This document shows positions 13,201 through 64,000 of a stretch of DNA of 64,000 bases, one piece after another. A program made the translations under genes and the position numbers. The DNA comes from Candidatus Multivorans sp. GTDB taxonomy: Bacteria; Acidobacteriota; Thermoanaerobaculia; Multivoradales; Multivoraceae. The notes beneath the pieces were generated by a model. The model saw nothing but the letters and a program-made list of their open reading frames with translations. It had not been told where the DNA came from and made no database searches. Location: assembly GCA_965203495.1 (NCBI GenBank), contig CBDBDB010000003.1, positions 11,297 through 75,296 on the forward strand, written 5' to 3'. How positions within the stretch are numbered: position 1 is the stretch's first letter; each line of letters starts with the position of its first letter.

Positions 13201-16152
13201 CTAGCGCTCCTGATCGGCGCCCTCACCGAGGAAGCGGATCAGGCTGGCCAGGTCGCTCAGGGTCATCGTGTCGAGCAGGCCTTCCGGCATGATCGAGAGC
13301 GCGGACGGCTCGCGGCGCCGGATCCGCTCCTTGTCCAGATCGACGCGGACGCCGCCGGCGTCGACCAGCGTCAACCGATCGGCGCCGTCCTCCACCACCA
13401 TGCCGCTGTGCAGGCTGCCGTCGTCGAGTTCGACGTCGACCGTCTGGTACTGGTCCGAGATGACGCGTGACGGGAACATGATCGACTCGAGAACTTCGCC
13501 GCGACGAAAGCGCTTGACGACCGTCGAGAGATCCGGGCCGCCGCCGCGGCCGATGTCGCCGAAGACGTGACAGGCCGAGCAACGCGCACGGTGAAACACC
13601 CGTTCACCCTGCTCGGGGTCGTAACGCTCGTAGGCCATCACGTCGTACTCCAGGTACTCCGCGAGTTCCTCGAAGCTCATCTGGGCGAGGTCGTTCCTAC
13701 CTCGCCGGTCACCCTCGACTTCGGTGACCAGCGCGGCGGCGCGCCGCGCCCGCTCGGCCCGCTGATTCTCGAGTCGCTCCTCGGCCGCCGCGCGTTCCTC
13801 GTCCGGGAACCGGGCCAGGACGTCGTTCCAGATGGCGTCGATGTATCCCTCCATGCTGGCGGCGCCACGGAACTCCCGGGCATCGTCGAACCAGGCCACG
13901 ACCCGGCCGCGCAACGCCGGCGTCCAGCCCCTGTCCATCGTCCGCAGGCAGTAGGCGGTGTGGATCTCCTCCGGCGTCGGCCGGTTCCCTTCCAGACGCT
14001 CGACCATCAGGGCAAGGGCCCCGTCCGGCTGCAGGTAGGCGAGCAGCCGTTCGAGCTGGCGGTTCACGCGATCGTCGGCGTGCGGGTAGCGACCGAGCAA
14101 CGCCTGCCCCAAGCCGACGCGCGCCTCGTCTCGCCCCGGAGCGTCGGGCGCCGGATCGCGAATGAAGGCGATCTCCATCGTCCGCAGGAAGTCGAGTTCG
14201 GCCTCCGCATCCAGGTCGGCCCGCGCGACCTGAAGCAGGCCGCCCATGAGGAAGTTGTACTCGATTCTGTGCTCCAGGCTGTAGATCATCGCCAGCACCG
14301 CCTCGAAGAAACCGCGGGGGCGCTGCCGGGGAGAGGCCACGAACGCCTGGTCGACCCAGTAGCCATGGGGGATCCGTTGGATCGCCTCCCGCGCCGCGTA
14401 ACGGAGGAACCGGTCACCGTGATCGAGCAGGCCGTACAGGGCGTCGGAGGTTGCGACCTCGATGCCGCGGGCGCGGAGATCGAGCCCCGAACGCACCATG
14501 GACTCGGCTGCCCGCCGGGCGACCAGCGGGTCGACATCGGCCAGCGCGGCGCGCAGAGGCCGCTGTACCTGGGAGAACGGGTGGCCGCCGAGCAGCCCGG
14601 CCGCGGCCGCGCGCACCAAGGGCGCGTCGGAGTCCAGCAACGCCGCCGTTTCCTCCGAAGTCGGTCGCGGACCATGCACCTGGAGCAGTTCCAGCGCGCG
14701 GATGCGGTCGAGCTGCGGCCGTTCCGCGCTGTGAACGATCGCCCAGAGTTCCGGCGCCCAGTTCGCGCCCGCCTCTCCGCGGGCGCGCCGGATCGCCTCC
14801 CTGCCCCACGCGGAGCGGGGCATCGGCTGACGGACCGCGGCTTCCGTGCCCGTGACCGCGACCGCCTCCCCGGCTCGCTCGCTGGTCACTCGGTAGAGAC
14901 CTCCCGACGTGCCCCGGCCGCCGGTCGCGAAGTACAGAACGCCGTCCGGCCCGACATCGAGGTCCGTCACGTTCAGCGGTTCGCCCAGGACGAAATCGTG
15001 CGCCTCCCCGGTCCAGGTGGCGCCGGCCCGCTCGGGGAACAGGACCCGGATCCGGCCCCGAGACCAGTCGCCCATGAAGTAGGCGCCCTGGTAGCGATCG
15101 GGGTAGACGTGGTGGTAGTAGAAGGCGACGCCCACCGGCGAGCCCCGTCCGATGTCGACCACGCTTGGCAGCGTGTCGATCTCGTGGAACGCGATCTTCC
15201 CGGACCCGGTGCGCCAGCCGTAGTCGCCCGCCGGTATCAGGTGGACCACCCGCGTGGGGCGAAACCAGGGCAAACCGCGGTCCCACTCCATGTCCGCCTC
15301 GTAGGCGAAGATCTCGCCCGCCGCGCCGATCGCCAGATCGAAGGGATTGCGCAGGCCTCCCGCGAGCCGCTCCCACGTGTTGGCGTCGAGATCCAGACGA
15401 TGGACCGTGCCGCCCGGCGCGCGCAGGCCGTTGGCATGGCCTCGCGGGTCGAGGATCGGCGGCAGGAGCTGATCCTCCCGCAGCGCGCGCAGCGGCGAGG
15501 TCGGCGCGAGGCTGACATCGGGCGACGAGTGGTTTCCGTAGAGGACGTACAGCGCGCCGTCGGGACCTCGCGCGATCGTGTGCGGTCCGTGCTCCTGGAT
15601 GCCGCCATTCGCGGGAGCGATCCGCTCGACCGCGTCGACCCGGTCGTCGCCGTCCGTGTCCCGCAGCCGGTAGAGCCCGGCGTCCTCCACCGAGGCGTTG
15701 CGGCCGGGCCTGCCCTCGACTCCCGCCGCCTCGGCCAGCCGGCCGCGGCCATTCGCGTGGACCAGCACGTCGCCCGGCCCCATGACGTACAGCCCATGCG
15801 CGGTGGCGACCTGGGGAGCGAAATCGATGCGCCGGTCGTACCGGCCGTCACCGTCGGCGTCCTCGAGCAGGGCCAGCCCTTCGCCCTCCAGCGCCAGCAG
15901 CGGTCTGCCCGCGGCGTCGAAGGTCATGTTGACGACCGAGCCGAAGAGGCCGTCCGCCGCCGCGGGTTCCACCGCGAATCCGTCCGGCGCGCGAAATCGC
16001 TCCCCGGCGTAGTCGAGCCGCTCGCGACGAGAGGCGTCGTGATCGGGCATCAACTCCTGGGCGCCGGCCGCAGCGGCGAGACCCAGCCCGAGTCCCAAGG
16101 ACAGGCCGCGAACGAACATGGTCGGCGATCCTACCCTCCTCCCGGCGCCCAC
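13201..16152 (-). CDS. PVC-type large exported protein: putative membrane-bound dehydrogenase (beta-propeller-like) domain + HEAT-like repeats + C-terminal c-type haem domain
   Basis: 983 aa with an N-terminal signal peptide. Single CxxCH near the C-terminus (HRARCSACHVFGDIGRGGGPDL). The architecture matches the Planctomycete/Verrucomicrobia membrane-bound dehydrogenase + haem-binding domain family. Confidence 0.7.
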   Translation of the reverse strand: MGAGRRVGSPTMFVRGLSLGLGLGLAAAAGAQELMPDHDASRRERLDYAGERFRAPDGFAVEPAAADGLFGSVVNMTFDAAGRPLLALEGEGLALLEDADGDGRYDRRIDFAPQVATAHGLYVMGPGDVLVHANGRGRLAEAAGVEGRPGRNASVEDAGLYRLRDTDGDDRVDAVERIAPANGGIQEHGPHTIARGPDGALYVLYGNHSSPDVSLAPTSPLRALREDQLLPPILDPRGHANGLRAPGGTVHRLDLDANTWERLAGGLRNPFDLAIGAAGEIFAYEADMEWDRGLPWFRPTRVVHLIPAGDYGWRTGSGKIAFHEIDTLPSVVDIGRGSPVGVAFYYHHVYPDRYQGAYFMGDWSRGRIRVLFPERAGATWTGEAHDFVLGEPLNVTDLDVGPDGVLYFATGGRGTSGGLYRVTSERAGEAVAVTGTEAAVRQPMPRSAWGREAIRRARGEAGANWAPELWAIVHSAERPQLDRIRALELLQVHGPRPTSEETAALLDSDAPLVRAAAAGLLGGHPFSQVQRPLRAALADVDPLVARRAAESMVRSGLDLRARGIEVATSDALYGLLDHGDRFLRYAAREAIQRIPHGYWVDQAFVASPRQRPRGFFEAVLAMIYSLEHRIEYNFLMGGLLQVARADLDAEAELDFLRTMEIAFIRDPAPDAPGRDEARVGLGQALLGRYPHADDRVNRQLERLLAYLQPDGALALMVERLEGNRPTPEEIHTAYCLRTMDRGWTPALRGRVVAWFDDAREFRGAASMEGYIDAIWNDVLARFPDEERAAAEERLENQRAERARRAAALVTEVEGDRRGRNDLAQMSFEELAEYLEYDVMAYERYDPEQGERVFHRARCSACHVFGDIGRGGGPDLSTVVKRFRRGEVLESIMFPSRVISDQYQTVDVELDDGSLHSGMVVEDGADRLTLVDAGGVRVDLDKERIRRREPSALSIMPEGLLDTMTLSDLASLIRFLGEGADQER

Positions 16153-16186
16153 GCGCCGCGAATCCGGGGGTTAGGATGCCGACAGC

Positions 16187-23451: not shown

Positions 23452-24255
23452 CTAGAAGTCGAAGAAGTCGTCCTCGCCGCCGGTGAGGTAGGACGCCTCC
23501 TCGTCGAGCCAAGCCTGGAACTCTTCCTCGGTATGCACCGTCAGGAAGCCGCGCATCGAGTAGTGACTGTTGCCGCAGAGCTGAGCGCAGGCAATCTCGT
23601 AGACGTAGTCCGGATTGCCGGTCTCCTCTCGGATCCGGGCAGTCGTCTTGGTTGGCACGAACCAGACGGGAATCGAGAGCCCGGGGATGGCGTCCTGCTT
23701 GATCCGCATGTTCGGCAGGTTGAAGCTGTGGATCACGTCCTTGGACGACAGGTGGATGATCGCCGCCTTGTCGACCGGCAGGTGCAACTGGTTCACGGTC
23801 CAGATGTCGTCCGCGCCGGCTGGATCGTCGCGGTCGAGGCCGATCGGATTGGTCGCTTCGTCGACCAGGGAGACGTCCGCGGCGCCGAACTCCCCGTCGG
23901 CGCCCGGGTACCAGACGTTCCAGGCGAACTGCTGCGCGACGACGCGCACGACCGTCGCCTCCGATTCCGGCGGCGCCTCGTCGACGCGCTCCGCCCACAT
24001 CGGGATGGAGAACCCGAGCAGGAGCACGCCCTCGACGATTGCCACGGCGACCTCCCCGTAGGTGCTCGCCTTGCTCTTGACGCCGACGTAATCCGCCTTC
24101 GGGTTGCGCCTGGCCCGGAAGCGCATCAGCACGTACACGAAGAACGCGCCCCAGACGATGAAGAGCGCGAACATCAGGTAGTGCACCACGTCGATCATGT
24201 TGTCGATCCGACCGGCGTGCTCCGACGCCGCGGCAGGGAACATGGAATCCATCAT
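23452..24255 (-). CDS. ctaC: Cytochrome c oxidase subunit II (CuA subunit; no fused cytochrome c domain)
   Basis: Two N-terminal TM helices, then a cupredoxin domain with CuA ligands (IHSFNLPNM ... CAQLCGNSHYSM). Its ATG overlaps the upstream ORF stop (ATGA). Confidence 0.9.
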   Translation of the reverse strand: MMDSMFPAAASEHAGRIDNMIDVVHYLMFALFIVWGAFFVYVLMRFRARRNPKADYVGVKSKASTYGEVAVAIVEGVLLLGFSIPMWAERVDEAPPESEATVVRVVAQQFAWNVWYPGADGEFGAADVSLVDEATNPIGLDRDDPAGADDIWTVNQLHLPVDKAAIIHLSSKDVIHSFNLPNMRIKQDAIPGLSIPVWFVPTKTTARIREETGNPDYVYEIACAQLCGNSHYSMRGFLTVHTEEEFQAWLDEEASYLTGGEDDFFDF

Positions 24256-24761
24256 GACTTGACAGGCTCCTCGACGGTGCTCCACCAGGGCGGCACCGGG
24301 TCGGTACGGAGGCGCCGCGCCCGACGCCGGAGACAGAGAAAGAAGAGAACCAGAGCGGCCTGCATCAGAAAGACCGAGCCGAGGAGAACCCAGGCGCCGG
24401 CGCGGGCGGCGTCGAGCATTCCGCCGCCGCCGCCGAAGAAACCGCCCCCGACGCCCTCGTCGCCCAGACCGCCGTAGCACGCCCTGCAGGCCCAGGCCGC
24501 GGGTTCGGATAAAAGGAGCCAGGCCGCCGCGACAACGGGAATCGTGCGAAACAGCTTCCGCCGCCTGGCCCACTCCTCCTCGGGAGTCGTGATCTTGCGC
24601 CAGAACCAGACGCCATACCCCACGAGCGCCGCGGCGACGACGAACGACAGCAGCGCCCCGATCCGGTACCCGACGCCCTGCGCCAGGCACCAGCCGCCGA
24701 AGAACAGCGCGAGGAGAACGGCGCTGCCGACGAAGACGATGTGGATGACCTTCAGGTTCAT
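24252..24761 (-). CDS. Hypothetical 4-TM membrane protein with CRAC motif, encoded between oxidase subunits IV and II
   Basis: MNLKVIHIVFVGSAVLLALFFGGWCLAQG... with four hydrophobic segments, CRACYGG and a Gly-rich loop. Start/stop overlaps indicate translational coupling with ctaF and ctaC. No recognisable family. Confidence 0.5.
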   Translation of the reverse strand: MNLKVIHIVFVGSAVLLALFFGGWCLAQGVGYRIGALLSFVVAAALVGYGVWFWRKITTPEEEWARRRKLFRTIPVVAAAWLLLSEPAAWACRACYGGLGDEGVGGGFFGGGGGMLDAARAGAWVLLGSVFLMQAALVLFFLCLRRRARRLRTDPVPPWWSTVEEPVKS

Positions 24762-24780
24762 GGCTTGACCGGGGAGACCG

Positions 24781-25110
24781 TCAGTGCGAAACAGGCGCCT
24801 CGAACGCCTCGAACTCGCCGACCTGATCCGCAACCGAGGTCAGGAGCGGCAACGCCATCAGGGCGATGAAGAAGGCAACGGTCAGCGCCAGCGTCCAGTA
24901 GATGATCTTCTTCTCGTCGATCAGGTGCATGAAGAAGCAGGCGACCAGAGAGGCCTTGACGGTGGCGATGAACAGGCCGATGGCGAGGGCGACCGGCACG
25001 GAGACGTCCAGGTAGTACGCGCCAACCGTGAAGCCCGTCCCCACCATCAGGGCGCCGAACACCAGGAAGTAGATGCGGACCTGCCGGTCGATATCGACGT
25101 GTTCACTCAT
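24781..25110 (-). CDS. ctaF: Cytochrome c oxidase subunit IV (prokaryotic aa3/caa3 type)
   Basis: 109 aa with 3 TM helices. YFLVFGALMVGTGFTVGAYYLD...IATVKASLVACFFMHL matches the bacterial COX4 (CtaF/CoxD) family. Confidence 0.75.
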   Translation of the reverse strand: MSEHVDIDRQVRIYFLVFGALMVGTGFTVGAYYLDVSVPVALAIGLFIATVKASLVACFFMHLIDEKKIIYWTLALTVAFFIALMALPLLTSVADQVGEFEAFEAPVSH

Positions 25111-25162
25111 GGGATGCGACTCGCTCCAGGGTAACCGGGGTCAAGGGCGGAGACAACGCCCG

Positions 25163-25762
25163 CTACAGGAGGTAGAAGACGGGAAAGAGGAAGATCCAGA
25201 CCAGGTCGACGAAGTGCCAGAAGAGGCCGGAGTGCTCGACCCGGTCGGTCAGCCACTGCCGGTTCGTGTGGAACAGCTTCGACCCGGGCCCGGCGAAGTA
25301 GGCGTTCCAGGCCATGCCGCCGATCACGTGCAGGGCGTGGAGGCCGGTCATCGCGAAGTAGATGGCGAGGAACGTGCTCGACTCCGGATAGTGATGGTGA
25401 TCGAACTTAGCCATGTACTCGAAGTACTTGATGACCAGGAAGACGCCGCCACAGCCGACGGTCGCCCAGCCGTAGGCCCGAAAGCGGTTCAGCTTCCCGC
25501 GCATCAGCGACGCCCAGGCCATGACCATCGTCAGACTGGAGCCGATCAGCACCACCGTGTTGAGCGTCGCCAGCGGAATGTTCAGTTCCGCTTCGGCCTG
25601 CATTGCCGCCCAGGCGCCGTCCGATCCCAGGCGCAGCATGATGAACGTGGCGAACAGCGCTCCGAACAGCATGACCTCCGAGGTCAGAAACAGCCAGATG
25701 CCGATCTTGCCGTTGTTTAGGCCGGTCTCGGGGTGGGCCTCTACCGTGTAGGGAATGTCCAT
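25163..25762 (-). CDS. ctaE: Cytochrome c oxidase subunit III
   Basis: GIWLFLTSEVMLFGALFATF... and HHHYPESSTFLAIYFAMTGLHALHVIGG are the COX3 family signature. Confidence 0.9.
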   Translation of the reverse strand: MDIPYTVEAHPETGLNNGKIGIWLFLTSEVMLFGALFATFIMLRLGSDGAWAAMQAEAELNIPLATLNTVVLIGSSLTMVMAWASLMRGKLNRFRAYGWATVGCGGVFLVIKYFEYMAKFDHHHYPESSTFLAIYFAMTGLHALHVIGGMAWNAYFAGPGSKLFHTNRQWLTDRVEHSGLFWHFVDLVWIFLFPVFYLL

Positions 25763-25783
25763 GATCCTGGGGTCCTCGAACGG

Positions 25784-27541
25784 TCAGGTTGAAGCCGGTT
25801 CGGCCTGTGGGACGTAGTCCCTGTCGCTGCCCGGAACGCTGTACTCGTACGGTCCGCGCACGACCTCGATCTCCTGGTCGAAGTTCCCGTGCGGCGCCGG
25901 CGACGGCGCCAGCCACTCGACCGTGGTCGAGTTCCAGGGGTTGCGGCCGGCCTTCTCGCCGTTCCGGATGCTCATGAAGAAGTTGACGATGAACGGAATC
26001 TGGGCCAGCGCCAGGCACCAGGCCGAAACCGACATCATGCGGTTCAGTCCAGCCACGTTGCCCGCGAAGTCGTAGGTGACGCCGCCGTCGGCAAGACGCC
26101 GCGAGACGCCGTTCAGGCCCTGAATCAGCATCGGGAAGAAGACGCCGTTCATGAAGACGAAGGAGGGCCAGAAGTGGAGCTTGCCCAGGAACTCGTTCAT
26201 CTTCCGTCCCGTCACCTTGGGGAACCAGTAATAGATGCCGGCGAACAGCGCGAACAGGGTGCCGGGCGCCACGACGTAGTGGAAGTGGCCGATCACGTAG
26301 TACGTGTCGTGGAGCGGGATGTCCGCCGCGGCAAGTCCCAGCGGCAGTCCGGTCAGCCCGCCGATGCCGAACATCGGCAGAAAGCCGAGCGCGAACAGCA
26401 TCGGCGTGTTGTAGCGGATGGAACCGCCCCAGAGCGAGATGAACAGGGCGCTCAGGATGATGACCGAGGGGATGGAGATGATCATCGTCGTCGTCTGGAA
26501 GAAGGTGGACATCACCGAGCCCATGCCCGTGATGAACATGTGGTGCGCCCAGACGATGAAACTCATGAAGCCGAGGAAGATCAGGGAGTACACCATCGAG
26601 CGGTAGCCCCAGAGCGGCTTGCGGGAGTTGTTCGCGATCACCTCGGCGACGATACCCATCGCCGGCAGGATGAGCACGTAGACCTCCGGGTGGGCCAGGA
26701 ACCAGAACAGGTGCTGCCAGAGCAGCGGACTGCCGCCTCCGCTCCGATCAAGCGCCTCGCCGCCGACCACCAGCCCGTCCGGTATGAAGAAGCTGGTGTT
26801 CGCCACGCGATCCATCAACTGCAGCACGCCCGCGGCCTCGAGCGGCGGAAAGGCGAGCAGCAGGAGGAAAGCGGTCACGATCTGCGCCCAGCAGAAGAAC
26901 GGCAGGCGCATCCAGGTCATGCCGGGCGCGCGGAGCTGGATCGCCGTGGTGATGAAGTTGATCGCGCCCAGCAGGGACGACGTGATCAGGAAGATCATCC
27001 CGATCAACCAGGCGGTCTGACCGTTCAGCGCGAGGTCGGCCAGCGGCGAGTACGAGGTCCAGCCGTTGCCCGCGGCGCCGTTCGGCAGGAAGAAGCTGGC
27101 GAACATGGTCACGCCGCCCAGGAACAGGCACCAGTAGCTCAGCATGTTGAGCCGCGGGAAGGCCATGTCCGGGGCGCCGAGCTGAAGCGGCATGACGAAG
27201 TTGCCGAAACCGCCGACCGCCAGCGGCACGACGCCCAGAAACACCATGATCGTCCCGTGCATGGCGCCGAGCTCGTTGTAGAAGTCCGGCAGCATGATGC
27301 CGCCGGGCGCCCGGTTCTCGCCGAAGAGCGAGCCGATCAGGGGAATCGGTTCGCCCGGATAGGCCAGCTGCCAACGCATCACCATCATCAGGGCGAACCC
27401 GAACAGAAGGAACGCGAGGCCGGTGACCGAGTACTGGACGCCGATCACCTTGTGATCGGTCGAGAAGACGCACTTCCTCCAGAAGCTCTGCTCGTGATGA
27501 TGCTCGTCGCGTGCGGGTGACGCGTGAACGGGCTCCGCCAT
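25784..27541 (-). CDS. ctaD: Cytochrome c oxidase subunit I (haem-copper oxidase catalytic subunit)
   Basis: 585 aa with 12+ TM helices. WFFGHPEVY-type blocks (LFWFLAHPEVYVLILPAMGIVAEVI), haem/CuB His ligands and the GMHGTIMVF... motif. Confidence 0.95.
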   Translation of the reverse strand: MAEPVHASPARDEHHHEQSFWRKCVFSTDHKVIGVQYSVTGLAFLLFGFALMMVMRWQLAYPGEPIPLIGSLFGENRAPGGIMLPDFYNELGAMHGTIMVFLGVVPLAVGGFGNFVMPLQLGAPDMAFPRLNMLSYWCLFLGGVTMFASFFLPNGAAGNGWTSYSPLADLALNGQTAWLIGMIFLITSSLLGAINFITTAIQLRAPGMTWMRLPFFCWAQIVTAFLLLLAFPPLEAAGVLQLMDRVANTSFFIPDGLVVGGEALDRSGGGSPLLWQHLFWFLAHPEVYVLILPAMGIVAEVIANNSRKPLWGYRSMVYSLIFLGFMSFIVWAHHMFITGMGSVMSTFFQTTTMIISIPSVIILSALFISLWGGSIRYNTPMLFALGFLPMFGIGGLTGLPLGLAAADIPLHDTYYVIGHFHYVVAPGTLFALFAGIYYWFPKVTGRKMNEFLGKLHFWPSFVFMNGVFFPMLIQGLNGVSRRLADGGVTYDFAGNVAGLNRMMSVSAWCLALAQIPFIVNFFMSIRNGEKAGRNPWNSTTVEWLAPSPAPHGNFDQEIEVVRGPYEYSVPGSDRDYVPQAEPAST

Positions 27542-27583
27542 GGACGCCGCTCCTTTCTCGTTGCTTGGCCGGGGGCGCCTCGG

Positions 27584-28300
27584 CTACTCCGGCTTGAAGA
27601 CGAAGTTCGCCGTCACGACGCCGTCGTCGCTGACCTCGACGGTCTCGGACTGGATCCTGAACCTCTCGAACTCGTGCCGCGCCTCGATCGTGTAAACGCC
27701 GGCCGGCACGTTCTCGATGCGGAAGGAACCGTCGGCGCCCGACACGGCGTAGAACGGATGATCGACGACGGTCACCCAGGAGGTCATCCAGGGATGAACG
27801 TCGCACTTGATCCGGAAGCGCTCCGTCTTCTCGAAGCTGTAGTCGGCCTCGGTCACGCTGGCCGGCATCGCCCGGTTGAACGGGGGGTTGTCCTTGGACA
27901 GCGAGTGGACGTTGTGCAGCAGGCCGTCCGAGTTCTTCACCTTGAACTGCTGGCCGACCTGGACGCCCATGATGCGCGGCGTGTAGATGCAGCCGTTCTG
28001 ATCCATGACCACGGGCTGCGAAGGCGCATCGAAGGACTTCCCTTCCAGGCCCTCGGTGATCGCCAGAAAGACGTTGGCGAAGGCGCCGTCATCCCCGACC
28101 ACGAAGGTCTGGTCGAGGACCGTGCCGCTGTGCTTCGCGGCACACTTGGGATCCGCGTCCATCCTCATTGGACGTTGCGGAGGCGTCCGGCCCTCGTACG
28201 TGACCTTGCCGACAATCGTGCCGCCGAAGGCAACCGGGGAGGAAGCCAGGGCGAGGGCGAGAAGAACGGCACAGACGCGGATCGTCCGCTTCGGAATCAT
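27584..28300 (-). CDS. Exported cupredoxin-like (type-1 copper motif) protein with CarboxypepD_reg-like beta-sandwich flanks (P1)
   Basis: AAGGAG Shine-Dalgarno 8 nt upstream of the ATG at 28300, and a signal peptide (MIPKRTIRVCAVLLALALASSPVAFG). Plastocyanin/pseudoazurin-like block VGQQFKVKNSDGLLHNVHSL ... KCDVHPWM (His ... Cys-x2-His-x2-Met). C-terminal GADGSFRIENVPAGVYTIEA. There is a paralogue at 31901..32692. Confidence 0.7.
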   Translation of the reverse strand: MIPKRTIRVCAVLLALALASSPVAFGGTIVGKVTYEGRTPPQRPMRMDADPKCAAKHSGTVLDQTFVVGDDGAFANVFLAITEGLEGKSFDAPSQPVVMDQNGCIYTPRIMGVQVGQQFKVKNSDGLLHNVHSLSKDNPPFNRAMPASVTEADYSFEKTERFRIKCDVHPWMTSWVTVVDHPFYAVSGADGSFRIENVPAGVYTIEARHEFERFRIQSETVEVSDDGVVTANFVFKPE

Positions 28301-28421
28301 GTCGATGCTCCTTGACTTGGAGTGGTGTCCGGGTTCACGAGGCGCGACCGGCAGAGTAGCAGGGACGACGGCTTGTAACAAGAACGGATCGCTGGCGCGG
28401 CGGCGCGGGTCCGGCGCCTCT

Positions 28422-29657
28422 TCAGACGTTCTCGAACGCCAGGGATTCGACGAGCCGCGGGTCCCGGGACGGCGCCAGCGGGCCGCGGCTCAGCAACCAG
28501 ACCGCGGTCGCCAGGAACAGGCCGCCGACGCCGAGCAGGCAGGTCAGGTCGAGAAGGCTGAACGTCATCTCCCGATGCAGGTTCGGCATGACCAGCCAGA
28601 ACACGTCCCACAGATGCATGGCCAGCATCCAGACGGCGCCGATCAGCAGGAAGGCGCGGTTGCGCTTGATCGTTCGCGGCATGAGGAAGAAGAACGGGAC
28701 GGCGAAGTGGCCGACGGCCAGCAGCACGGTCGCCGCGCGCCAGTTCGCCGGGTTGTTCGCCGTGCCGTGCAGCCGGCTCAGGAACCAGTTGGTCTCCTCC
28801 GGGATGTTCGCGTACCAGATCAGGAAGAACTGGCTGAAGGCGATGTACGCCCAGAACACGGTGAAGGCGAACAGCAGCTTGCCGAGATCGTGGAAATGCT
28901 CGCCGGTGACCACGCCCCGGAAGTGGCCGGACCGCTCGAACGCCAGCGTGAAGACGATGAGCGCGGCAAACGCCGAAACGACCGTGCCGGCGAAGAAGTA
29001 GACGCCGAACATGGTCGAGTACCAGTGCGGCTCCAGCGACATCAGCCAGTCGAAACCGGCAAACGTCAGCGTCACCGCGAGGAGGGCGATCGCAACGGGG
29101 CTGAATCGCGCCATTCGGCGGGAAAGGGCTTCGTCTCCGCTCTCGTCCTGCCGCCGCGACGCGCTGCGGTAGTAGAGCGCCAGCCCGCTCCAGACCACGA
29201 AGTAGATGACCGCCCGAATCCAGAAGCCGGTCTCGTTGAGCCACGGTTCCTTGACCTGCAGCAATCGGTCATGCGCTACCGCGTCGGCGTGGGTCCAGTG
29301 GAACAGGTCGTACATGCCCAGGGCGACGACGGGAACGAACAGGACCGCCAGCGCCGGCGCCGTGCAGGCCAGGTTCTCGGCCAGGCGGCGCACCACGACG
29401 CCCCAGCCCGCCTTCGTCGCGTGGTGAATCAGCACGAAGAACAGACAGCCGAGACCAATGCCGAGAAAGTAGACGACGGCCACGAGCCAGGAGTGGAAGA
29501 ACTGCTTCGCGCTCTCCGCCGATCCCATCGCCAGAACGACCGACGCGGCCGTGAAGACCAGGCCGACCGTTCCCGCGATCAACGGCAGGCGCGACCAGCC
29601 GCCGCCCGGTCGGATGACCAGCTGATCGAGATGAACGGTGCGCGGTCCGTGGGCCAT
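28422..29657 (-). CDS. actF: Alternative complex III subunit ActF-like (second NrfD-family polytopic membrane subunit)
   Basis: About 410 aa with 10 TM helices. Its ATG overlaps the actD stop by 1 nt. It is similar in topology and motifs to actC and is the third gene of the actC-actD-actF series. Confidence 0.8.
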   Translation of the reverse strand: MAHGPRTVHLDQLVIRPGGGWSRLPLIAGTVGLVFTAASVVLAMGSAESAKQFFHSWLVAVVYFLGIGLGCLFFVLIHHATKAGWGVVVRRLAENLACTAPALAVLFVPVVALGMYDLFHWTHADAVAHDRLLQVKEPWLNETGFWIRAVIYFVVWSGLALYYRSASRRQDESGDEALSRRMARFSPVAIALLAVTLTFAGFDWLMSLEPHWYSTMFGVYFFAGTVVSAFAALIVFTLAFERSGHFRGVVTGEHFHDLGKLLFAFTVFWAYIAFSQFFLIWYANIPEETNWFLSRLHGTANNPANWRAATVLLAVGHFAVPFFFLMPRTIKRNRAFLLIGAVWMLAMHLWDVFWLVMPNLHREMTFSLLDLTCLLGVGGLFLATAVWLLSRGPLAPSRDPRLVESLAFENV

Positions 29658-30265
29658 CAGACGGCGCCTCCCGCGTCGCCGTCTTCCGCCGGGTCGTCGA
29701 TCGGCACGTGCTCCACTTCGACCGCGCCAAGTCCGCTCAGGAACTCGGCGGTGGCCCGGTCGTCGTACTTCGCGTCCCAGGCTTCGATCGCGATGAACAG
29801 ACCGTCGTCCGTGACCCGCGCGAAGTTCTTCGACCGGAACAGCGGATGGTGGTAGGTCGGCAGCTTGTTGAAGGCGAACATGCCGAGCACCGCTCCCAGC
29901 GCCGCGCCGAGCACGCCGAGCTCGAAGGTGACCGGCACGAAGGCTGGCCAGGTGAACAGAGGCTTGCCGCTGATGATCAGCGGATAGGCCTGGACGTGAA
30001 CCCAGCTCTGCAGGGCGAAGCCCAGCCCGGCGCCGGAAAGTCCCGTCGCCAGCACGAGGAAGGGCAACCTGGACGGCTTCAGCCCCATCGCCTTCTCGAG
30101 ACCGTGCACCGGGAACGGCGTCAGCGCGTCCCACTTCGAGTAGCCGGCGTCACGGACCGCCTCGCACGCTCGATAGAGCGCCTTGGCCGTCTCGAAGCGA
30201 GCCAGGACGCCGTAGTGGCGGTAGCCCGCCGACGCTTCCGGCACGTCCAGGGTCATCAGGCCCAT
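29657..30265 (-). CDS. actD: Alternative complex III subunit ActD-like (DUF3341 membrane protein)
   Basis: 202 aa. Cytoplasmic N-terminal part (YGVLARFETAKALYRACEAVRDAGYSKWDALTPFPVHGLEKAMG) followed by 2 TM helices. It sits between two NrfD-like genes with 1-nt spacing. Confidence 0.75.
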   Translation of the reverse strand: MGLMTLDVPEASAGYRHYGVLARFETAKALYRACEAVRDAGYSKWDALTPFPVHGLEKAMGLKPSRLPFLVLATGLSGAGLGFALQSWVHVQAYPLIISGKPLFTWPAFVPVTFELGVLGAALGAVLGMFAFNKLPTYHHPLFRSKNFARVTDDGLFIAIEAWDAKYDDRATAEFLSGLGAVEVEHVPIDDPAEDGDAGGAV

Positions 30266-30266
30266 G

Positions 30267-31727
30267 TCACGCGCCTCCCGCGCCGGCCGTCGCCGGCCGC
30301 GCCGCGGCCGTCGCTCCGGCCCCGGCGGCCGCGACCCGCACGAGTTCCTCGCCCTGGTGCGGATCGGCCTCCGGCAGCACGGTCTTGACCTCCGCCGTCG
30401 CCACCAGCGGCAGGAAGCGGGCGAACAGGCAGAACATCGTGAAGAACAGGCCGAAGCTGCCGATCAGCGAGGCGAAGTCCCAGAAGGTCGCCTGGTAGTA
30501 GTCCCAGCTCGCCGGCAGGAAGTCCCGGTGCAGCGACGACGCGACGATGACGAAACGCTCGAACCACATGCCGATGTTGATCAGGATCGAGGAGACGAAC
30601 AGCCAGCCGATGTGGTTGCGCATCTTCTTGAACCAGAACAGTTGCGGCGTGAGCACGTTGCAGCTGACCATGATCCAGTAGGCCCAGGCGTAGGGGCCGA
30701 GGGCCCGGTTGGCGAAGGCGAACTGCTCGTAGGGGTTGCCGCTGTACCAGGCGATGAACATCTCGATGCCGTAGGCGTAGCCGACCATGCACCCCGTCAG
30801 CAGCATGATCTTGGCCATGTTCTCGAGATGGCGCATCGTGATGATGTCCTCCATCCTGAACAGGACCCGGCAGATCAGCATCAGGGTCACGACCATGGCG
30901 AAGCCGGAGAAGATGGCGCCGGCGACGAAGTAGGGCGGGAAGATCGTCGTGTGCCAGCCCGGCAGCTGGGCGGTCGCGAAGTCCATCGACACGACGGAGT
31001 GGACGGAGAGGACGAGGGGAGTCGCCAGTCCGGCCAGCATCAGGTAGGCCCGCTCGTAGTGCAGCCAGTTCCGGTGAGAACCGCGCCAGCCGAGAGCGAA
31101 GACGCCGTAGACGATCCGCCGGATCCGCGTCCGGGCGCGGTCGCGAATCGTCGCGAGGTCCGGAATCAGGCCGACGTACCAGAACATCAGGGACACCGTG
31201 CCGTAGATCGACACCGCGAACACGTCCCAGATCAACGGACTGCGGAAGTTCGGCCACATGTCCATCTGGTTCGGCAGCGGGAACATCCAGTAGGCGACCC
31301 ACACGCGGCCGACGTGGATGCCGGGAAACACCAGGGCGCACATGACCGCGAAGATCGTCATCGCCTCCGCGGCGCGGTTGATCGAGGTGCGCCACTTCTG
31401 CCGGAACAGGAAGAGGATCGCGGAGATCAACGTGCCGGCGTGGCCGATGCCGACCCAGAAGACGAAGTTGACGATCGCGAAGCCCCAGTTGACCGGATTG
31501 TTCAGGCCCCAGATGCCGGTGCCCTCCCAGAACAGCCAGGCGATCGAAACGCCGAACAGGCCCAGCAGCGCCAGCGACGGCAGGAAGAAGAACCACCAGC
31601 CGATCGGCGTCCCGCGCTCGACCGGCGCCGCGACCGCTTCCGTCAGGGAGCGGAAGTCGTAGCCGCCTACGATCAGCGGCGCGCGGCCGGCGACCGGTTC
31701 CTGGGTGTTGTCCTGACTCTGTGCCAT
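30267..31727 (-). CDS. actC: Alternative complex III subunit ActC-like (NrfD/PsrC-family quinol-interacting membrane subunit)
   Basis: 486 aa. [56 protein letters not shown] matches the ActC/NrfD signature block. Confidence 0.85.
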
Positions 31728-31900
31728 CGAGGGCCTGGAAGTAGGGCGGCGGCGCCCTCAAGGGCTGGGCCGGGCCACGAATCGCGCGGAAGCTAGCACC
31801 GGCCCCTGACCGGGTCAAGGAAACGGGCTGCACGGCGGCGGCGCGGGCACGGTCCCGCGCAGCCTACTCCGGCCTCCCCCGGCCTGCGTAGAATGGAAGG

Positions 31901-32692
31901 ATGACCTGTCCACCGACTTCCTCGTCCCGCCGGATTCTCGCGGCGGTTCCCGCCCTGGCCTTCCTCTCGCTCGCCGCGTGCGGCGACGCCGCGTCCGAGG
32001 GCGCTGGCGGCCATGCCGCGGAAGCGACCGAAGCGCCGCCCGCCGAACCCCTGGGCAGGAGCGCCATCGCCGGCGTCGTTCGCTTCGACGGCGAGGCGCC
32101 GAAGCTCCGTCCGCTCGACATGGGCGCCGACCCCGCCTGCGCCGCCAAGCACGCGGAACCGGCATACCCCGAGTTCCTCGCGGTCGACGACCAGGCCGGC
32201 CTGGCCAACGTCCTCGTCTACGTCGCCGACAACGTTCCGCAGGGCCCCTACCCGCCGGCCGAGCCGCCCGTGATCGACCAGAAGGGCTGTCGGTACACGC
32301 CCCGCGTCGCCGGCATCATGGTGGGCCAGGAGCTCCGGGTGCTGAATTCGGACGACCTCCTCCACAACGTCCACTCCCTTTCCGAGATCAACTGTCCCTT
32401 CAACCGGGCGATGCCCGCCGCGATCAAGGAGGCCTCCTTCTCGTTCACCGACGCGGAACCCGCCTTCCGGATCAAGTGCGACGTGCACCCCTGGATGTCG
32501 AGCTACCTCGCCGTCTTCGGCCATCCCTTCTTCGCCGTCACCGGACCGGACGGCGCCTTCGAGATCCCCGGGCTGCCCGCCGGCACCTACACGATCGAAG
32601 CCTGGCACGAACGCCTGGGCAGCCAGCGCGCCGGCGTCACGCTCCTCGACGGACTGGCCGCGACGGTCGATCTCGCGTTCACCCTTCCGTAA
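31901..32692 (+). CDS. Cupredoxin-like (type-1 copper motif) lipoprotein, paralogue of P1 (P2)
   Basis: Lipobox LSLAAC, then the same conserved blocks as P1: DMGADPACAAKH, VLNSDDLLHNVHSLS, NRAMPA, FRIKCDVHPWM and HPFFAVTGPDGAFEIPGLPAGTYTIEAWHE. It is transcribed divergently from actC across a 173-bp spacer. Confidence 0.7.
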   Translation: MTCPPTSSSRRILAAVPALAFLSLAACGDAASEGAGGHAAEATEAPPAEPLGRSAIAGVVRFDGEAPKLRPLDMGADPACAAKHAEPAYPEFLAVDDQAGLANVLVYVADNVPQGPYPPAEPPVIDQKGCRYTPRVAGIMVGQELRVLNSDDLLHNVHSLSEINCPFNRAMPAAIKEASFSFTDAEPAFRIKCDVHPWMSSYLAVFGHPFFAVTGPDGAFEIPGLPAGTYTIEAWHERLGSQRAGVTLLDGLAATVDLAFTLP

Positions 32693-41488: not shown

Positions 41489-41507
41489 GCGCTGGTAGGC
41501 TGACGCC

Positions 41508-42803
41508 ATGAAGCGCTCGGTCCTCTTCTGTCTCGTCCTTCCGCTCGCGGTCGGCGCCGCGGACGCCTCGGACCGCGACGCACCCACCTTCCACGCCGAC
41601 GTGCTGCCCGTGCTTCAGACCCACTGTCAGGATTGTCACCGCCCCGCCGGAGCGAACTACGGCGGGATGCGGGCGCCGATGGCCCTGACCACCTATGCCG
41701 AGACGCGGCCCTGGGCCCGGTCCATCGCACGGACGGTGGCGGCCCGGGAGATGCCGCCCTGGGACGCCCACCCCCGACACGACGGGACGTTCGCGAACGA
41801 GCGGGTGCTCGACCCGGCGGAGATCGAGATCCTGGTCAACTGGGCGCGCGGCGGCGCCGCCCCCGGCGATGCCGGCGACGCTCCCCCGCCGCGGGAGTTT
41901 CCGAGCGCCGGCGGCTGGGTGGTGGGCGAGCCCGACCTCGTGGTGACCATGCCGGCGCCCTACTTCGTCGAGGACGAAGTCGACGACCTCTACGCCGCCT
42001 TCTCGACCGTCCTCACCGAGGAGGATCTGCCCGAGGATCGTTGGGTCGTCGCCTTCCAGTGCAAGCCGGACAGCGAGATCATCCATCACTTCAACCTTCA
42101 CCTGCTGGCGCCGGACGAAAACGGCCAATTGCCGCCGGCGCCGGCGTTCCCGAACCAGGATCAGCTCGCCCCGGCGCCGGAGAACGCGGGCGCCTACATG
42201 GGCGGCGTCTCGTCCGGCAGCGACGCCAACCGCTACCCGGAGGGCTACGGGTTTCTTCTCAGGAAGGGCTCGCGGGTGACGTTCGACATCCACTACCACA
42301 AGGAAGCCGGCGCCGGCACGGGCCTGTGGGACCAGTCGTCGATCGGTTTCGTCTTCGCCGACGAACCGGTGACCCGTCCGCTCGGCTCCGGTCTGCGCCC
42401 GATCATGAACTTCACGTTCGCGATTCCGCCGAATGACGGCAACTTCCAGGTGGGTCCCTACTCCACCGTCGCCCGACGGGACACCGAGATCATCGCGCTC
42501 ATGCCGCACATGCACATGCGCGGCAAGGCCGCGCGCTTCGAGGCGTTCTACCCCGACGGCACGAGCGAAGTGCTGCTCGAGGTGCCCGAGTTCGACTTCT
42601 CCTGGCAGACCGTCTACTACTACGACAAGCTGAAGCGCATCCCCGCCGGCTCCCGGATCGAGTACACGGCCTGGTACGACAACTCGCCCGAGAAGGCGGC
42701 CCGTTACGGCTTCGACTCGAATCGCACGGTCCGCTTCGGCCAGCCCTCCACCGACGAGATGATGATGGGCTTCATGATGAGCGCCGCGGCGCCGGAGAAC
42801 TAG
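41508..42803 (+). CDS. Exported fusion protein: N-terminal PSCyt1-type mono-haem cytochrome c domain + copper type-II ascorbate-dependent monooxygenase-like (PHM/DBH-like) two-domain region
   Basis: Signal peptide; FHADVLPVLQTHCQDCHRPAG (CxxCH). CuH-like HH...H ligands (EIIHHFNLH ... DIHYH) and CuM-like HxH...M ligands (PHMHMRGKA ... STDEMMMGF), with spacing as in peptidylglycine alpha-hydroxylating monooxygenase. Confidence 0.6.
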   Translation: MKRSVLFCLVLPLAVGAADASDRDAPTFHADVLPVLQTHCQDCHRPAGANYGGMRAPMALTTYAETRPWARSIARTVAAREMPPWDAHPRHDGTFANERVLDPAEIEILVNWARGGAAPGDAGDAPPPREFPSAGGWVVGEPDLVVTMPAPYFVEDEVDDLYAAFSTVLTEEDLPEDRWVVAFQCKPDSEIIHHFNLHLLAPDENGQLPPAPAFPNQDQLAPAPENAGAYMGGVSSGSDANRYPEGYGFLLRKGSRVTFDIHYHKEAGAGTGLWDQSSIGFVFADEPVTRPLGSGLRPIMNFTFAIPPNDGNFQVGPYSTVARRDTEIIALMPHMHMRGKAARFEAFYPDGTSEVLLEVPEFDFSWQTVYYYDKLKRIPAGSRIEYTAWYDNSPEKAARYGFDSNRTVRFGQPSTDEMMMGFMMSAAAPEN

Positions 42804-60845: not shown

Positions 60846-61538
60846 GTGGAATCCTGTTTCCTCTACTGGGACAACTCGAACATCCTTCACGAAGCTCAGC
60901 GACTCGCGGAGCAGAGGGAGGCCGGCCCCGATGCGCGCTACCGGGTTCGGATCAACTTCGAGAACATCCGGAGACTGACCGATGCCGGGCGGCACGTGGA
61001 GACGGCCTTCCTCGCGGGCTCGGTCCCGCCTGAGCTCCGCCAACTGTGGAATCGTCTGGAGGCTGACGGATGGAGGGTCCAGCTGTTCGACCGGGGCTCG
61101 CCCGGCCGCGGCGAGCAACAGATGCCCGATCACATTCTGCAACTGCGGATGTTGGAAGACGCCCTCGATTACAACGGCGACCCCGGCATCGCCGTCCTGT
61201 TGAGCGGGGACGGCGCGGGCTGCCGCGAAGGCGGCGGCTTTCATCGCACGCTCGAGCGGATGCACCGGAAAGGCTGGAGGATCGAGATCCTCTCGTGGGC
61301 GAACTCCTGCAACCAGCGGATGCGGCAGTGGGCTGAACGGAACGGCGTGTTCGTCGCCCTCGACGACTTCTACGAGTCCATCTCGTTTCTCGAACCATCC
61401 GCGCCTGGCCACGCGACCGCTTCGCCGCGCGAATCCTCGCCGCTCGATCTTTCCAGGCGGCCGATCTCTCGTTGCCGCGACTTCCCCGGTTCCGCGGGGG
61501 AGTCCGGTTCGACCGGCGGGTCCTCGAAGCGCTTGTAG
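60846..61538 (+). CDS. NYN-domain (PIN-like nuclease fold) protein
   Basis: FLYWDNSNI ... RINFENI ... AVLLSGDGAG ... GWRIEILSW matches the NYN/LabA-like block pattern. The C-terminal roughly 55 aa are low-complexity and overlap a convergent gene. Confidence 0.6.
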   Translation: MESCFLYWDNSNILHEAQRLAEQREAGPDARYRVRINFENIRRLTDAGRHVETAFLAGSVPPELRQLWNRLEADGWRVQLFDRGSPGRGEQQMPDHILQLRMLEDALDYNGDPGIAVLLSGDGAGCREGGGFHRTLERMHRKGWRIEILSWANSCNQRMRQWAERNGVFVALDDFYESISFLEPSAPGHATASPRESSPLDLSRRPISRCRDFPGSAGESGSTGGSSKRL

Positions 61539-61972
61539 TTCTTTCCGTAGTCCGGTCGGGTGCGGCGATGGCAGACGACGCAGGACATGTAGACCTGCTC
61601 GTTCAAGGCGACCAGCGCCTCGAGGTCCCGCTCGAGAGCGGCTTCCCAGGCCGCGACGCCGGCATCGAACATCAACCGGGCGTCGCGCATCCACTCGTCG
61701 CGGTCGCCGACCACGCGGCTCGGCATCATGATCAGGTTGGCCGACTCGGCCAGGAGGAGCGCCTGCGCCTGCAGTTCGTTCCACTCGACGTCGTTGGTCG
61801 GGGCCCGGCTCTCCACGTAGAGAATGGCGTCCGAAGCCGGATACAACAGCTTGATCATCAGTTCGCTCATCGTGCCGACGGGCGCCGGCTCGGGAACCGG
61901 TCCGTCGTCCCGCGCGGCCGCCGCGGCCGCGAAGACGGCCGCGAGCGCGGCGATTGCAATCCATCTCGGCAT
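61370..61972 (-). CDS. Exported mono-haem cytochrome c (class II / cytochrome c'-like, C-terminal CxxCH)
   Basis: Signal peptide (MPRWIAIAALAAVFAAAAAA), a helical region, and a single haem site (YMSCVVCHRRTRPDYG) near the C-terminus. Confidence 0.45.
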   Translation of the reverse strand: MPRWIAIAALAAVFAAAAAARDDGPVPEPAPVGTMSELMIKLLYPASDAILYVESRAPTNDVEWNELQAQALLLAESANLIMMPSRVVGDRDEWMRDARLMFDAGVAAWEAALERDLEALVALNEQVYMSCVVCHRRTRPDYGKNYKRFEDPPVEPDSPAEPGKSRQREIGRLERSSGEDSRGEAVAWPGADGSRNEMDS

Positions 61973-62037
61973 GCTGATGGGGCTATGATGGCACGATTCG
62001 GACAGCCAGTACACGACCCGGAGATGGAATCCCAGTC

Positions 62038-63285: not shown

Positions 63286-64000
63286 CCGCGGGTCTTCCGA
63301 CCGGCCACGGCCGCCGCGGCCCCCAGGCCGGCGCGGCGCCGGCGGCGGGGTCCGCGCGCGACTCGCGACCGCGGCGCTGACGCTCGCCCTCGCCGGCTGC
63401 GCGGCTGGCGAGGCCGGTTCCGGACAGGGGCCGTTCGCCCGTTACCCGTCGCGGCTCTCGGCCTGGGGACTGTTCGCCGGAGAGCCGGCGAACCACATCC
63501 CGGACGCCGGCGTCGAGCCCTACGACCTGAACACCGCGCTGTTCTCGGACTACGCGCTGAAGTTCCGCTTCGTCCGCCTGCCGAGAGGAACCGACGACGC
63601 CGTCGAACCCGCGCTGTACCGCGAGGCGGGTCCGTTCGAGTTCCCGGTCGGCACGGTCATCTCGAAGACCTTCGCCTATCCCGCGGACCTCAGGGTTCCG
63701 GAAGAGGGTCTGCGGCCCCTGGAAACCAGGCTGCTCGTCCACGAAGCGGGCGGTTGGGTGGGCCTGCCGTACATCTGGAACGCCGAGCTGACGGACGCCG
63801 ACCTCGCGATCGTCGGCGGACCGATCGAGGCGTCATGGATCGATGCCCGGGGCGAGAGGATCCGGCACACCTACCGGGCGCCGAACGCGAACCAGTGCAA
63901 GACCTGCCACCGGACGGACGGCGAGCGGGTCCTGCCGATCGGCCCCCAGGCGGCGCAACTGAACCGCGAGTCCGCCTACCCGGCCGCCGACCGCGCGGCC
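63272..64000 (+). CDS. CxxCH-containing lipoprotein, HNE_0200/TIGR03806-like partner of the beta-helix gene; 3' end beyond the window
   Basis: Open frame with no stop to the window end. Lipobox (LTLALAGC). ... IWNAELTDADLAIVGGPIEASWIDARGERIRHTYRAPNANQCKTCHRTDGERVLPIGPQAAQLN carries a haem c motif. A GTG start at 63272 is tentative. Confidence 0.55.
   Translation, partial: MALRNRGSSDRPRPPRPPGRRGAGGGVRARLATAALTLALAGCAAGEAGSGQGPFARYPSRLSAWGLFAGEPANHIPDAGVEPYDLNTALFSDYALKFRFVRLPRGTDDAVEPALYREAGPFEFPVGTVISKTFAYPADLRVPEEGLRPLETRLLVHEAGGWVGLPYIWNAELTDADLAIVGGPIEASWIDARGERIRHTYRAPNANQCKTCHRTDGERVLPIGPQAAQLNRESAYPAADRAA

Follow-up and report, generated by a model that had tools for sequence, protein, structure and literature searches.

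A reduced alternative complex III operon in Acidobacteriota encodes ActC, ActD and ActF with a predicted cupredoxin and an aa3 oxidase

Alternative complex III (ACIII) is treated as a single operon-encoded machine, and genome surveys score it as present only where actABCDEF occur together. ACIII genes followed by those of a terminal oxidase form a well-known 'superoperon' (PMC5928083; for Acidobacteria, PMC8407424), and in Nitrospirales and Manganitrophus the oxidase that follows is bd-like (PMC12342949; bioRxiv 10.1101/2021.11.15.468770). The respiratory (Cr) operon of Chloroflexus holds actB, E, A and G with SCO and cox genes and has no actC, D or F (PMC3150298); proteomic data point to a single ActCDF being shared there by two ActABEG sets (PMC9316378). 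ACIII also reduces the blue copper protein auracyanin (Gao et al. 2009, as cited in PMC3150298). Here we analyse a 64-kb stretch of DNA from 'Candidatus Multivorans' sp. (contig CBDBDB010000003.1; hereafter the window), in which a nine-gene operon encodes ActC, ActD and ActF, a cupredoxin-like protein (P1) and an aa3-type oxidase, with no actA, actB or actE. We propose with moderate confidence that this reduced operon encodes the membrane half (ActC'D'F') of a split ACIII, whose dedicated partner (ActA'B'E') would be encoded in trans.

The reduced operon shares much with the ACIII–caa3/aa3 superoperons of Rhodothermus marinus (6F0K), Flavobacterium johnsoniae (6BTM) and Acidobacteriaceae ('ACIII-A2 caa3 superoperon'). 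The three Act proteins ActC, ActD and ActF are orthologues that agree in their quinol-site and coupling residues, and the oxidase genes lie directly downstream in the same direction; the same quinol-to-O2 logic would be expected. Unlike the superoperons, the window locus has no actA, actB, actE or SCO gene, carries a predicted cupredoxin gene between actF and ctaD, and runs ctaD-E-F-x-C rather than coxB-ctaD-E-F. Its oxidase is A1-type (HPEVY) without the K-pathway lysine, whereas the oxidases beside canonical ACIII in the compared loci are A2-type (YSHPAVY) and retain that lysine. Moreover, its subunit II has no cytochrome c domain. With the Cr and Cp operons of Chloroflexus aurantiacus the locus would share the encoding of modules apart, one operon combining a partial ACIII with oxidase genes and the rest lying in trans, and a type-1 blue copper protein as ACIII acceptor (auracyanin there, P1 as proposed here). 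The Cr operon is, however, its mirror image, the window operon having actC,D,F without actA,B,E. Auracyanin genes are unlinked, whereas P1 lies inside the operon, and P1 is amicyanin-like with an additional β-sandwich domain and gave no auracyanin homology in the tests made.

The reduced operon and its membrane module

The window has a G+C content of ~70%, and open reading frames (ORFs) by themselves therefore carry little meaning; genes were called with the aid of G+C at the third codon position (GC3). The GC3 signal follows nine successive minus-strand frames from 31727 down to 23452, which were named from Pfam and NCBIfam profiles and from searches against PDB sequences (Table 1). These frames and matches bear out the nine genes named in the original prediction, cupredoxin-like P1 included. 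The coordinates likewise agree with its account of the spacing as −4 to 121 nt (from actC to ctaC: 1, −1, 121, 42, 21, 52, 19 and −4 nt), of a 173-bp divergent spacer and plus-strand gene before actC, and of a 1-nt overlap between actD and actF, where the actF' start overlaps the actD' stop. ActC and ActF are NrfD-type ACIII proteins, as had been predicted, the former by Pfam NrfD and 6f0k_C and the latter by 6f0k_F; no Pfam or NCBIfam model matched ActF'. ActD' also matches 6lod_D (E=1.7e-50) and 6f0k_D (E=7e-45). A sigma-70 and terminator scan of the operon gave nothing above shuffles, the sigma-70 consensus scan being uninformative for Acidobacteriota.

ActA, ActB and ActE are encoded nowhere in the window by motif, tblastn or Pfam searches. 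CXXCH occurs at most once in any of its ORFs, and a ferredoxin-type CxxCxxCxxxC occurs in no real ORF. Queries with two types of ActA, ActB and ActE gave only noise in tblastn of the window (E>0.03), and Pfam assigned unrelated functions to its remaining coding regions, including RpoD, MatE, AmtB, carbonic anhydrase, SMC and ABC transporters. At the level of the locus there is neither an ActB, with its domain like those that bind the molybdenum bis-pyranopterin guanine dinucleotide (Mo-bisPGD) cofactor and its iron–sulphur (FeS) domain with one [3Fe-4S] and three [4Fe-4S] clusters, nor, within the 64 kb, a pentahaem ActA and a monohaem ActE. The single act cluster typical of ACIII is lacking too: actC is preceded by the divergent spacer and actD overlaps actF, in the same way in 31 genomes. 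Candidate monohaem c proteins are encoded elsewhere in the window, at 13201–16170 (minus strand; a 989-residue DUF7133-HEAT protein with a C-terminal CXXCH), 41499–42803 (plus strand; 435 residues with CXXCH and no Pfam match) and 61370–62035 (minus strand; a 221-residue ORF with CXXCH). A NosD-like β-helix protein (61978–63285, plus strand) overlaps a CXXCH ORF (63200–64000, plus strand) that leaves the window at its end.

The cluster starts abruptly at actC, and this is the sole point for an assembly artefact in which actA and actB were lost through a mis-join near 31.8 kb, an idea to which we attach practically no weight. The junction of divergent P1 paralogue, ~170-bp spacer and actC is the same in loci L001 and L008–L014, which come from independent assemblies that include closed chromosomes of 3.9–5.1 Mb, and 31 species representatives have the nine genes in this order between unrelated flanks. 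Since the same gene order recurs with differing flanks (L001, L002, L004 and L005/6; 31 of 80 GTDB loci), a mis-join is excluded, and we rejected mis-assembly. The predicted absence of actA, actB and actE from the locus is thus upheld by the negative window searches and by a layout conserved among relatives, and the attendant worry that a corrected assembly might place actA and actB upstream of actC is removed.

These counts derive from a scan of one genome per GTDB species with ActC as query, which returned 80 loci that were classed by local tblastn synteny. The 31 loci with the actC-actD-actF-P1-ctaD order are all Acidobacteriota, by title or by sequence: seven (93–97% identity), among them 'Candidatus Multivorans' and several closed chromosomes, are Thermoanaerobaculia, and some two dozen are Vicinamibacteria. 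Three more belong to the same clade but are truncated, two are permuted (L033 and L039), 40 are canonical with actB directly upstream of actC, and four are canonical-like or truncated. ActC is at most 75% identical in the 44 canonical or canonical-like loci, and at most 70% in 40 of these. A 4.58-Mb contig that encodes the closest database ActC (95% identical) has all nine genes and the divergent neighbour as well; relatives with ActC 73–81% identical keep the nine genes, and their flanks are unrelated. By neighbour joining, the ActC' sequences of reduced operons group in a single clade, within which L033 and L039 are nested and whose sister is canonical Myxococcota-type ACIII. Some metagenome-assembled genome records with Vicinamibacteria-type operons (L021, L030, L041, L035 and L024) are titled cyanobacterium, Acidimicrobiia, Bifidobacteriaceae or Deltaproteobacteria. 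All five are probably mislabelled or mis-binned, and titles alone are therefore unfit for defining the taxonomic range of the operon.

The membrane subunits retain what is known to matter in ACIII. The quinol pocket of R. marinus ActC comprises Trp82, Ile86, Phe89, Pro136, His139, Leu166, Asp169, Val250 and Asp253, and the coupling residues are ActC Ser245, ActD Glu122 and ActF Tyr284 (PMC5928083). In alignments to the R. marinus subunits, all nine pocket residues and Ser245 are identical in the window's ActC', Glu122 is conserved within VTFELG of ActD', and Tyr284 is kept within FWAYIAFSQ of ActF' (aligned to 6f0k_F). Each of the three proteins thus has the features expected of its ACIII counterpart, ActF' being the second NrfD-like subunit, without a quinol site. 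In ACIII a periplasmic loop of ActD contacts ActB (PMC5928083), and this loop is kept in ActD' (window, YPLIISGKPLFTWPAFVP; pattern YPLxIxGKPxFxxPxxVPxxFE).

The ten ActC helices were assigned by homology and the loop classes compared between lineages. Periplasmic loops of ActC' are 72–73% identical to those of canonical ActC in the window's lineage, 73% in the reduced operons of Vicinamibacteria and 73–74% in the two genomes with adjacent ActA'B'E', against a canonical-versus-canonical baseline of 71%. Loss of ActB, or a switch to a copper protein, predicts divergence in the ActB-facing loops. None is seen, which argues that the module still faces ActB. Judged by these alignments, ActC'D'F' looks fully functional and still ActB-facing.

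Orphan actA'B'E' operons in relatives

The two permuted loci join both halves. In L033 and L039, actC'D'F' (ActC 72–75% identical to the window's) is followed on the same strand by genes for a pentahaem cytochrome, ActB and a monohaem cytochrome, then by a CydA-like 'bd-like' oxidase and further cytochromes c. ActB of L039 is split into B1, a Mo-bisPGD-like protein, and B2, an FeS protein. When L039 ActB' was used as query against a large protein database, at least 120 clusters at 78–86% identity were found among the matches listed. All four of the clusters looked up are orphan operons without NrfD, ActD or ActF, in the order actA', actB', actE', bd-like oxidase, three cytochromes c, Usp/PCP_red protein, acetyltransferase and Mrp-like ATPase. 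Two of the four, both in Vicinamibacteria, share a contig with a reduced operon. On contig_2249 (1,631,743 bp), L088 and L022 share an overlap of 1010 identical bases; the A'B'E' unit there runs convergently towards ctaC, and actA' starts ~15 kb past the ctaC stop. On contig_36366 (586,531 bp) the reduced operon and the orphan A'B'E' lie ~47 kb apart. Throughout the Vicinamibacteria loci L033, L039, L088, L089, L290 and L291, actA'-actB'-actE' is followed by the CydA-like oxidase and two or three cytochromes c.

The clusters of ACIII and bd-like oxidase (CydAA', OR-N type) of Nitrospirales and 'Ca. Manganitrophus' TO_3 resemble the A'B'E' half-operon of Vicinamibacteria and the L033 and L039 loci, down to the split ActB of L039. 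In Nitrospirales the cluster is, however, actABCDE, with ActC and ActD present and ActF missing, whereas the Vicinamibacteria orphans have no membrane Act subunit at all. No part of such an operon lies in the window.

Some genomes have a canonical ACIII as well. A complete actABCDEF stands beside the reduced or split loci in L018, L019, L027, L041, L088 and L291, and nearby in L025, L029 and L038. This neighbour is of a Planctomycete-like type, its ActC 57% identical to the window's and its ActB 48% identical to ActB'. Genomes with canonical actABCDEF, C'D'F' and A'B'E' therefore hold the ACIII subunits twice over, as a contiguous set and as a split one. A database search with ActB of the sister canonical locus L024 listed matches only 46–52% identical and was uninformative, and the loci from it (P0340, P0273 and P0288) are ordinary canonical ACIII(-caa3) clusters. 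In a representative library the best match to ActB' was 58% identical; clustering at 50% merges ActB' with canonical ActB, and this search therefore has no resolving power.

Three kinds of oxidase cluster are accompanied by a set of accessory genes, not present in the window, for a radical-SAM (rSAM)/SPASM/PCP_red protein, a Usp-PCP_red protein, a small PCP_red protein and an Mrp/ParA-like ATPase. One kind is the reduced operon, another is the actA'B'E'-bd-like operon, and the third comprises a further A1 oxidase with a P1-like gene. These associations, and those of the P1-like genes described below, come from a metagenome scan with the Mrp-like protein of L002 (80 loci). In the L002 lineage (ActC 81% identical) the rSAM-PCP_red and Mrp genes lie downstream of ctaC, arranged as in the Vicinamibacteria super-locus. 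This hints that a partner actA'B'E' may lie just beyond the L002 DNA examined.

P1 and the aa3 oxidase

P1 is predicted from its sequence to be an amicyanin-like type-1 copper protein. It reads as having an N-terminal signal peptide, and a profile of 18 diverse P1 orthologues and paralogues aligns with amicyanin over the full chain (E=3e-6), the copper ligands of the two coinciding. The profile also matches a Nitrosopumilus blue copper protein, pseudoazurin and the cupredoxin domain of NirK. His129, Cys166, His169 and Met172, the ligand set of type-1 cupredoxins, are invariant in the 18 aligned sequences, whereas no Pfam cupredoxin model reaches E=0.01 on the single P1 sequence. The C-terminal 60 residues correspond to a CarboxypepD_reg/NOMO-type sandwich (CarboxypepD_reg E=2e-6, under the Pfam gathering score). 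The core thus resembles amicyanin, pseudoazurin and plastocyanin; P1 differs from that family in this sandwich and in an N-terminal extension of ~70 residues with a conserved Cys. A two-sequence AlphaFold (AF2) model of low confidence (predicted local distance difference test score, pLDDT, 55) offers weak corroboration, Foldseek ranking amicyanin and cupredoxins first. The paralogue divergent from actC carries the copper-ligand motifs of P1, LLHNVH and KCDVHPWM. Only Thermoanaerobaculia relatives (L001 and L008–L014) share it at this position. Its N terminus contains SRR and could be a Tat signal.

P1-like genes with the same C-x-x-H-x-x-M loop adjoin other haem–copper and bd-like oxidase clusters that have no ActCDF. 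This placement suggests a wider family of oxidase-associated blue copper proteins, tied to terminal oxidases and not to ActC, which weighs against P1 as the direct acceptor at the quinol site. P1 probably takes over the role of the cytochrome c domain that CtaC lacks; read most simply, it would replace the haem c step between ACIII and CuA.

CtaD is an A-family subunit I, with the metal ligands, the HPEVY tyrosine and the D-pathway Asp/Glu in place (motifs GAPDMAFPR, AHPEVY, WAHHMF and GHFHYV); it scores 586 bits against TIGR02891, under the cut-off of 670.75. Codon 362 (window 26456–26458, minus strand) encodes Ile where Rhodobacter sphaeroides has K362 of the K pathway. In the alignment of helix VIII to 1m56_A, IPSVIILSAL of the window faces VPTGIK362IFSW, and the K-pathway lysine is absent. 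The residue is Ile or Val in all reduced-operon CtaD sequences where the segment is readable, in both classes (L001–L053, L211 and L215). This lysine is regarded as essential in A-type enzymes, and a clade of A1 oxidases without it therefore merits biochemical study. We found no description of such an oxidase in the literature, though no search was aimed at it. CtaE matches the NCBIfam aa3_CtaE_Actin and CyoC-like models under their cut-offs.

CtaC has visible ligands for a binuclear CuA (DVIHSF ... CAQLCGNSHYSM; H...CxxxCxxxHxxM) and scores 122 bits against TIGR02866, under the cut-off of 147.7. It contains no CXXCH and lacks the fused cytochrome c domain of a caa3 oxidase; subunit II of two Pfam-annotated canonical ACIII-linked oxidases (L293 and L294) carries Cytochrom_C. 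A quinol oxidase without CuA was considered and rejected, the CuA ligands being present in CtaC. The ORF between ctaF and ctaC, predicted to have four transmembrane helices (4-TM ORF), matches no Pfam or NCBIfam family. It was found by tblastn at the same place in most reduced operons, with the CxxC in 19 of 19 orthologue high-scoring segment pairs listed, and its full periplasmic motif is AC-x-x-C-(Y/F)-G...EG.M(I/V)D. As the operon has no SCO gene, this protein may be a redox or copper-handling assembly factor.

Table 1. Features of the window and loci of relatives (positions within the window or within the named locus)
Feature	Position	Strand	Description
actC'	30267..31727	-	NrfD-type quinol-binding ACIII subunit, ten transmembrane helices; Pfam NrfD E=5e-25; 6f0k_C E=5.5e-203
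actD'	29657..30265	-	ACIII subunit with two transmembrane helices and a cytoplasmic domain; ActD PF11821 E=4e-63, 212 bits
actF'	28422..29657	-	Second NrfD-like ACIII membrane subunit; 6f0k_F E=3.5e-86
P1	27584..28300	-	Predicted secreted amicyanin-like type-1 cupredoxin with C-terminal CarboxypepD_reg/NOMO-like β-sandwich
ctaD	25784..27541	-	Haem–copper oxidase subunit I, A1-type (AHPEVY); COX1 E=1e-135, 453 bits
ctaE	25163..25762	-	Oxidase subunit III, short form with ~5 transmembrane helices; Pfam COX3 E=9e-20
ctaF	24781..25110	-	Oxidase subunit IV; COX4_pro E=1.5e-10; TIGR02229 caa3_sub_IV 49 bits, over cut-off
4-TM ORF	24252..24761	-	Conserved, without family; periplasmic AC-x-x-C-(Y/F)-G motif; GC3 frame
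ctaC	23452..24255	-	Oxidase subunit II with CuA site, without cytochrome c domain; TIGR02866 CoxB E=2e-35
P1 paralogue	31901..32692	+	Divergent from actC; predicted lipoprotein, lipobox LAAC; 48% identical to P1
Divergent intergenic region	31728..31900	.	173 bp; presumed promoters for both transcription units
Contiguous actC'D'F'-actA'B'E'-bd-like loci	L039 10001-21252; L033 10001-21461		
Orphan actA'B'E' loci	L088, L089, L290, L291, at about 9.4-18.9 kb		
Accessory set loci	L002 18733-21452; L016; L022; L040; L088 18891-23090; L211-L217; L221-L282		
P1-like genes beside non-ActCDF oxidases	L221, L224, L229, L242, L252 (about 5.1-5.5 kb); L235 20253; L282 19683		

A split complex and its alternatives

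In a split ACIII, ActC'D'F' would form the membrane module, with the quinol site and the proposed proton paths, and would be co-transcribed with P1 and the A1-type aa3 oxidase, whose subunit II is without a cytochrome c domain. The pentahaem ActA', the FeS protein ActB', without Mo, and the monohaem ActE' would form the periplasmic electron-transfer module, supplied in trans. Electrons would pass from menaquinol at ActC' to the FeS clusters of ActB' and the haems of ActA' and ActE', and from there through the copper of P1 to CuA of CtaC, haem a, haem a3/CuB and O2. The window's own genome would then carry actA'B'E' elsewhere, the two halves would assemble into one complex, and P1 would carry electrons to CuA in place of a caa3-type cytochrome c domain. 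We favour this split because orphan A'B'E' sets occur on the same contigs as reduced operons, because two genomes have the halves contiguous, and because the ActB-facing loops of ActC are unrelaxed. The original prediction had left two alternatives, a split ACIII or a reduced ActCDF quinol module that hands electrons to a different periplasmic carrier; these same findings support the former, and the latter gains no support.

Several points weigh against the split. P1 occupies the exact position that actA'B'E' has in L033 and L039, which could equally mean replacement. To divide a complex between two operons that have different terminal oxidases is odd from a regulatory point of view, and the assembly of the two halves is something we infer. 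In eight close relatives (L001 and L008–L014) no ActA, ActB or ActE is encoded within 10 kb on either side, and no Thermoanaerobaculia ActB is among the matches listed to L039 ActB' (the best 120, all at least 78% identical). Furthermore, the accessory genes that bridge the half-operons elsewhere (rSAM-PCP_red, Mrp-like ATPase) are not in the window.

Some of these points would suit a quinol oxidase free of FeS clusters and haem c, in which ActC'D'F' passes single electrons straight to type-1 copper. P1, its lipoprotein paralogue or both would dock on ActC' and then reduce CuA, copper replacing ActABE. The nine genes always travel together, P1 lies immediately downstream of actF' in the place of actA'B'E', the quinol site is intact, and in the window's lineage two P1 paralogues flank an operon with no ActABE within 64 kb. 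Against such a module, the periplasmic loops of ActC' and the ActB-binding loop of ActD are undiverged from those of complete complexes, genomes with the reduced operon retain orphan actA'B'E' sets that come without a separate membrane partner, and P1-like genes beside oxidases without ActCDF (L221, L224, L235, L282 and others) indicate a family that tracks terminal oxidases. NrfD-family enzymes are, in addition, known only with electron transfer to an FeS subunit (Table 1 of PMC8076601). We regard copper-only transfer as distinctly unlikely. That the window's lineage in particular has no ActA, ActB or ActE at all, with P1 or its paralogue docking over the quinol site and feeding an aa3 oxidase devoid of the K pathway, is to us a similarly long shot. 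If true, only copper centres would lie between quinol and haem a, and this would be the first NrfD-family module without an FeS subunit.

A borrowing of subunits would also account for the missing genes: ActC'D'F' would be an additional membrane module, adapted to the aa3 oxidase, that takes ActA, ActB and ActE from a complete canonical ACIII in the same genome, as a mirror of the Chloroflexus case in which one ActCDF is shared (PMC9316378). In L018, L019, L027 and L041 canonical actABCDEF does adjoin the reduced operon, and in L025, L029 and L038 it lies close by. However, this neighbour is of the different, Planctomycete-like type, L033 and L039 pair C'D'F' with A'B'E' and not with the canonical set, borrowing would leave the orphan A'B'E' sets without any membrane module, and no canonical ACIII lies near the operon in the window's lineage; we consider it unlikely. 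We think it very improbable that ActC'D'F' is a redox-inert structural or proton-handling accessory of an oxidase that receives its electrons through P1 from an unrelated complex III. All readable reduced-operon CtaD sequences lack the K-pathway lysine, and oxidase, 4-TM CxxC protein and ActC'D'F' strictly co-occur, as such a role would suggest. Yet the quinol pocket (His139, Asp169, Asp253 and the hydrophobic lining), ActD Glu122 and ActF Tyr284 are all retained, and an inert scaffold would gain nothing from quinol and coupling residues. Nor is there a known physical route from the proton paths of ActC and ActF to the oxidase active site.

The claim that a one-transcript quinol-to-O2 operon is undescribed proved too broad, given the published superoperons and the use of ActCDF in trans in Chloroflexus. 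It holds for the exact layout: the literature searched contained no description of a membrane half with a cupredoxin and an aa3 oxidase whose haem/FeS half sits in a second operon, nor of an amicyanin-like protein within an operon with ActCDF. What is new here is the split layout, the cupredoxin and the A1-type oxidase without the K-pathway lysine.

On the split reading, the membrane and redox halves of ACIII would be encoded apart in a layout that is widespread in Vicinamibacteria and Thermoanaerobaculia, in lineages known mostly from metagenomes and in many cases from soil. The halves would be coupled to different terminal oxidases, the one to a cupredoxin and aa3 oxidase and the other to a bd-like oxidase and cytochromes c. 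Marker-based annotation will miscall such organisms as having an 'incomplete' ACIII. The arrangement would serve as a natural experiment on the exchangeability of ActCDF and ActABE as modules, proposed for Chloroflexus, and it suggests that copper connects ACIII with an A1-type oxidase in which the K-pathway lysine has been lost.

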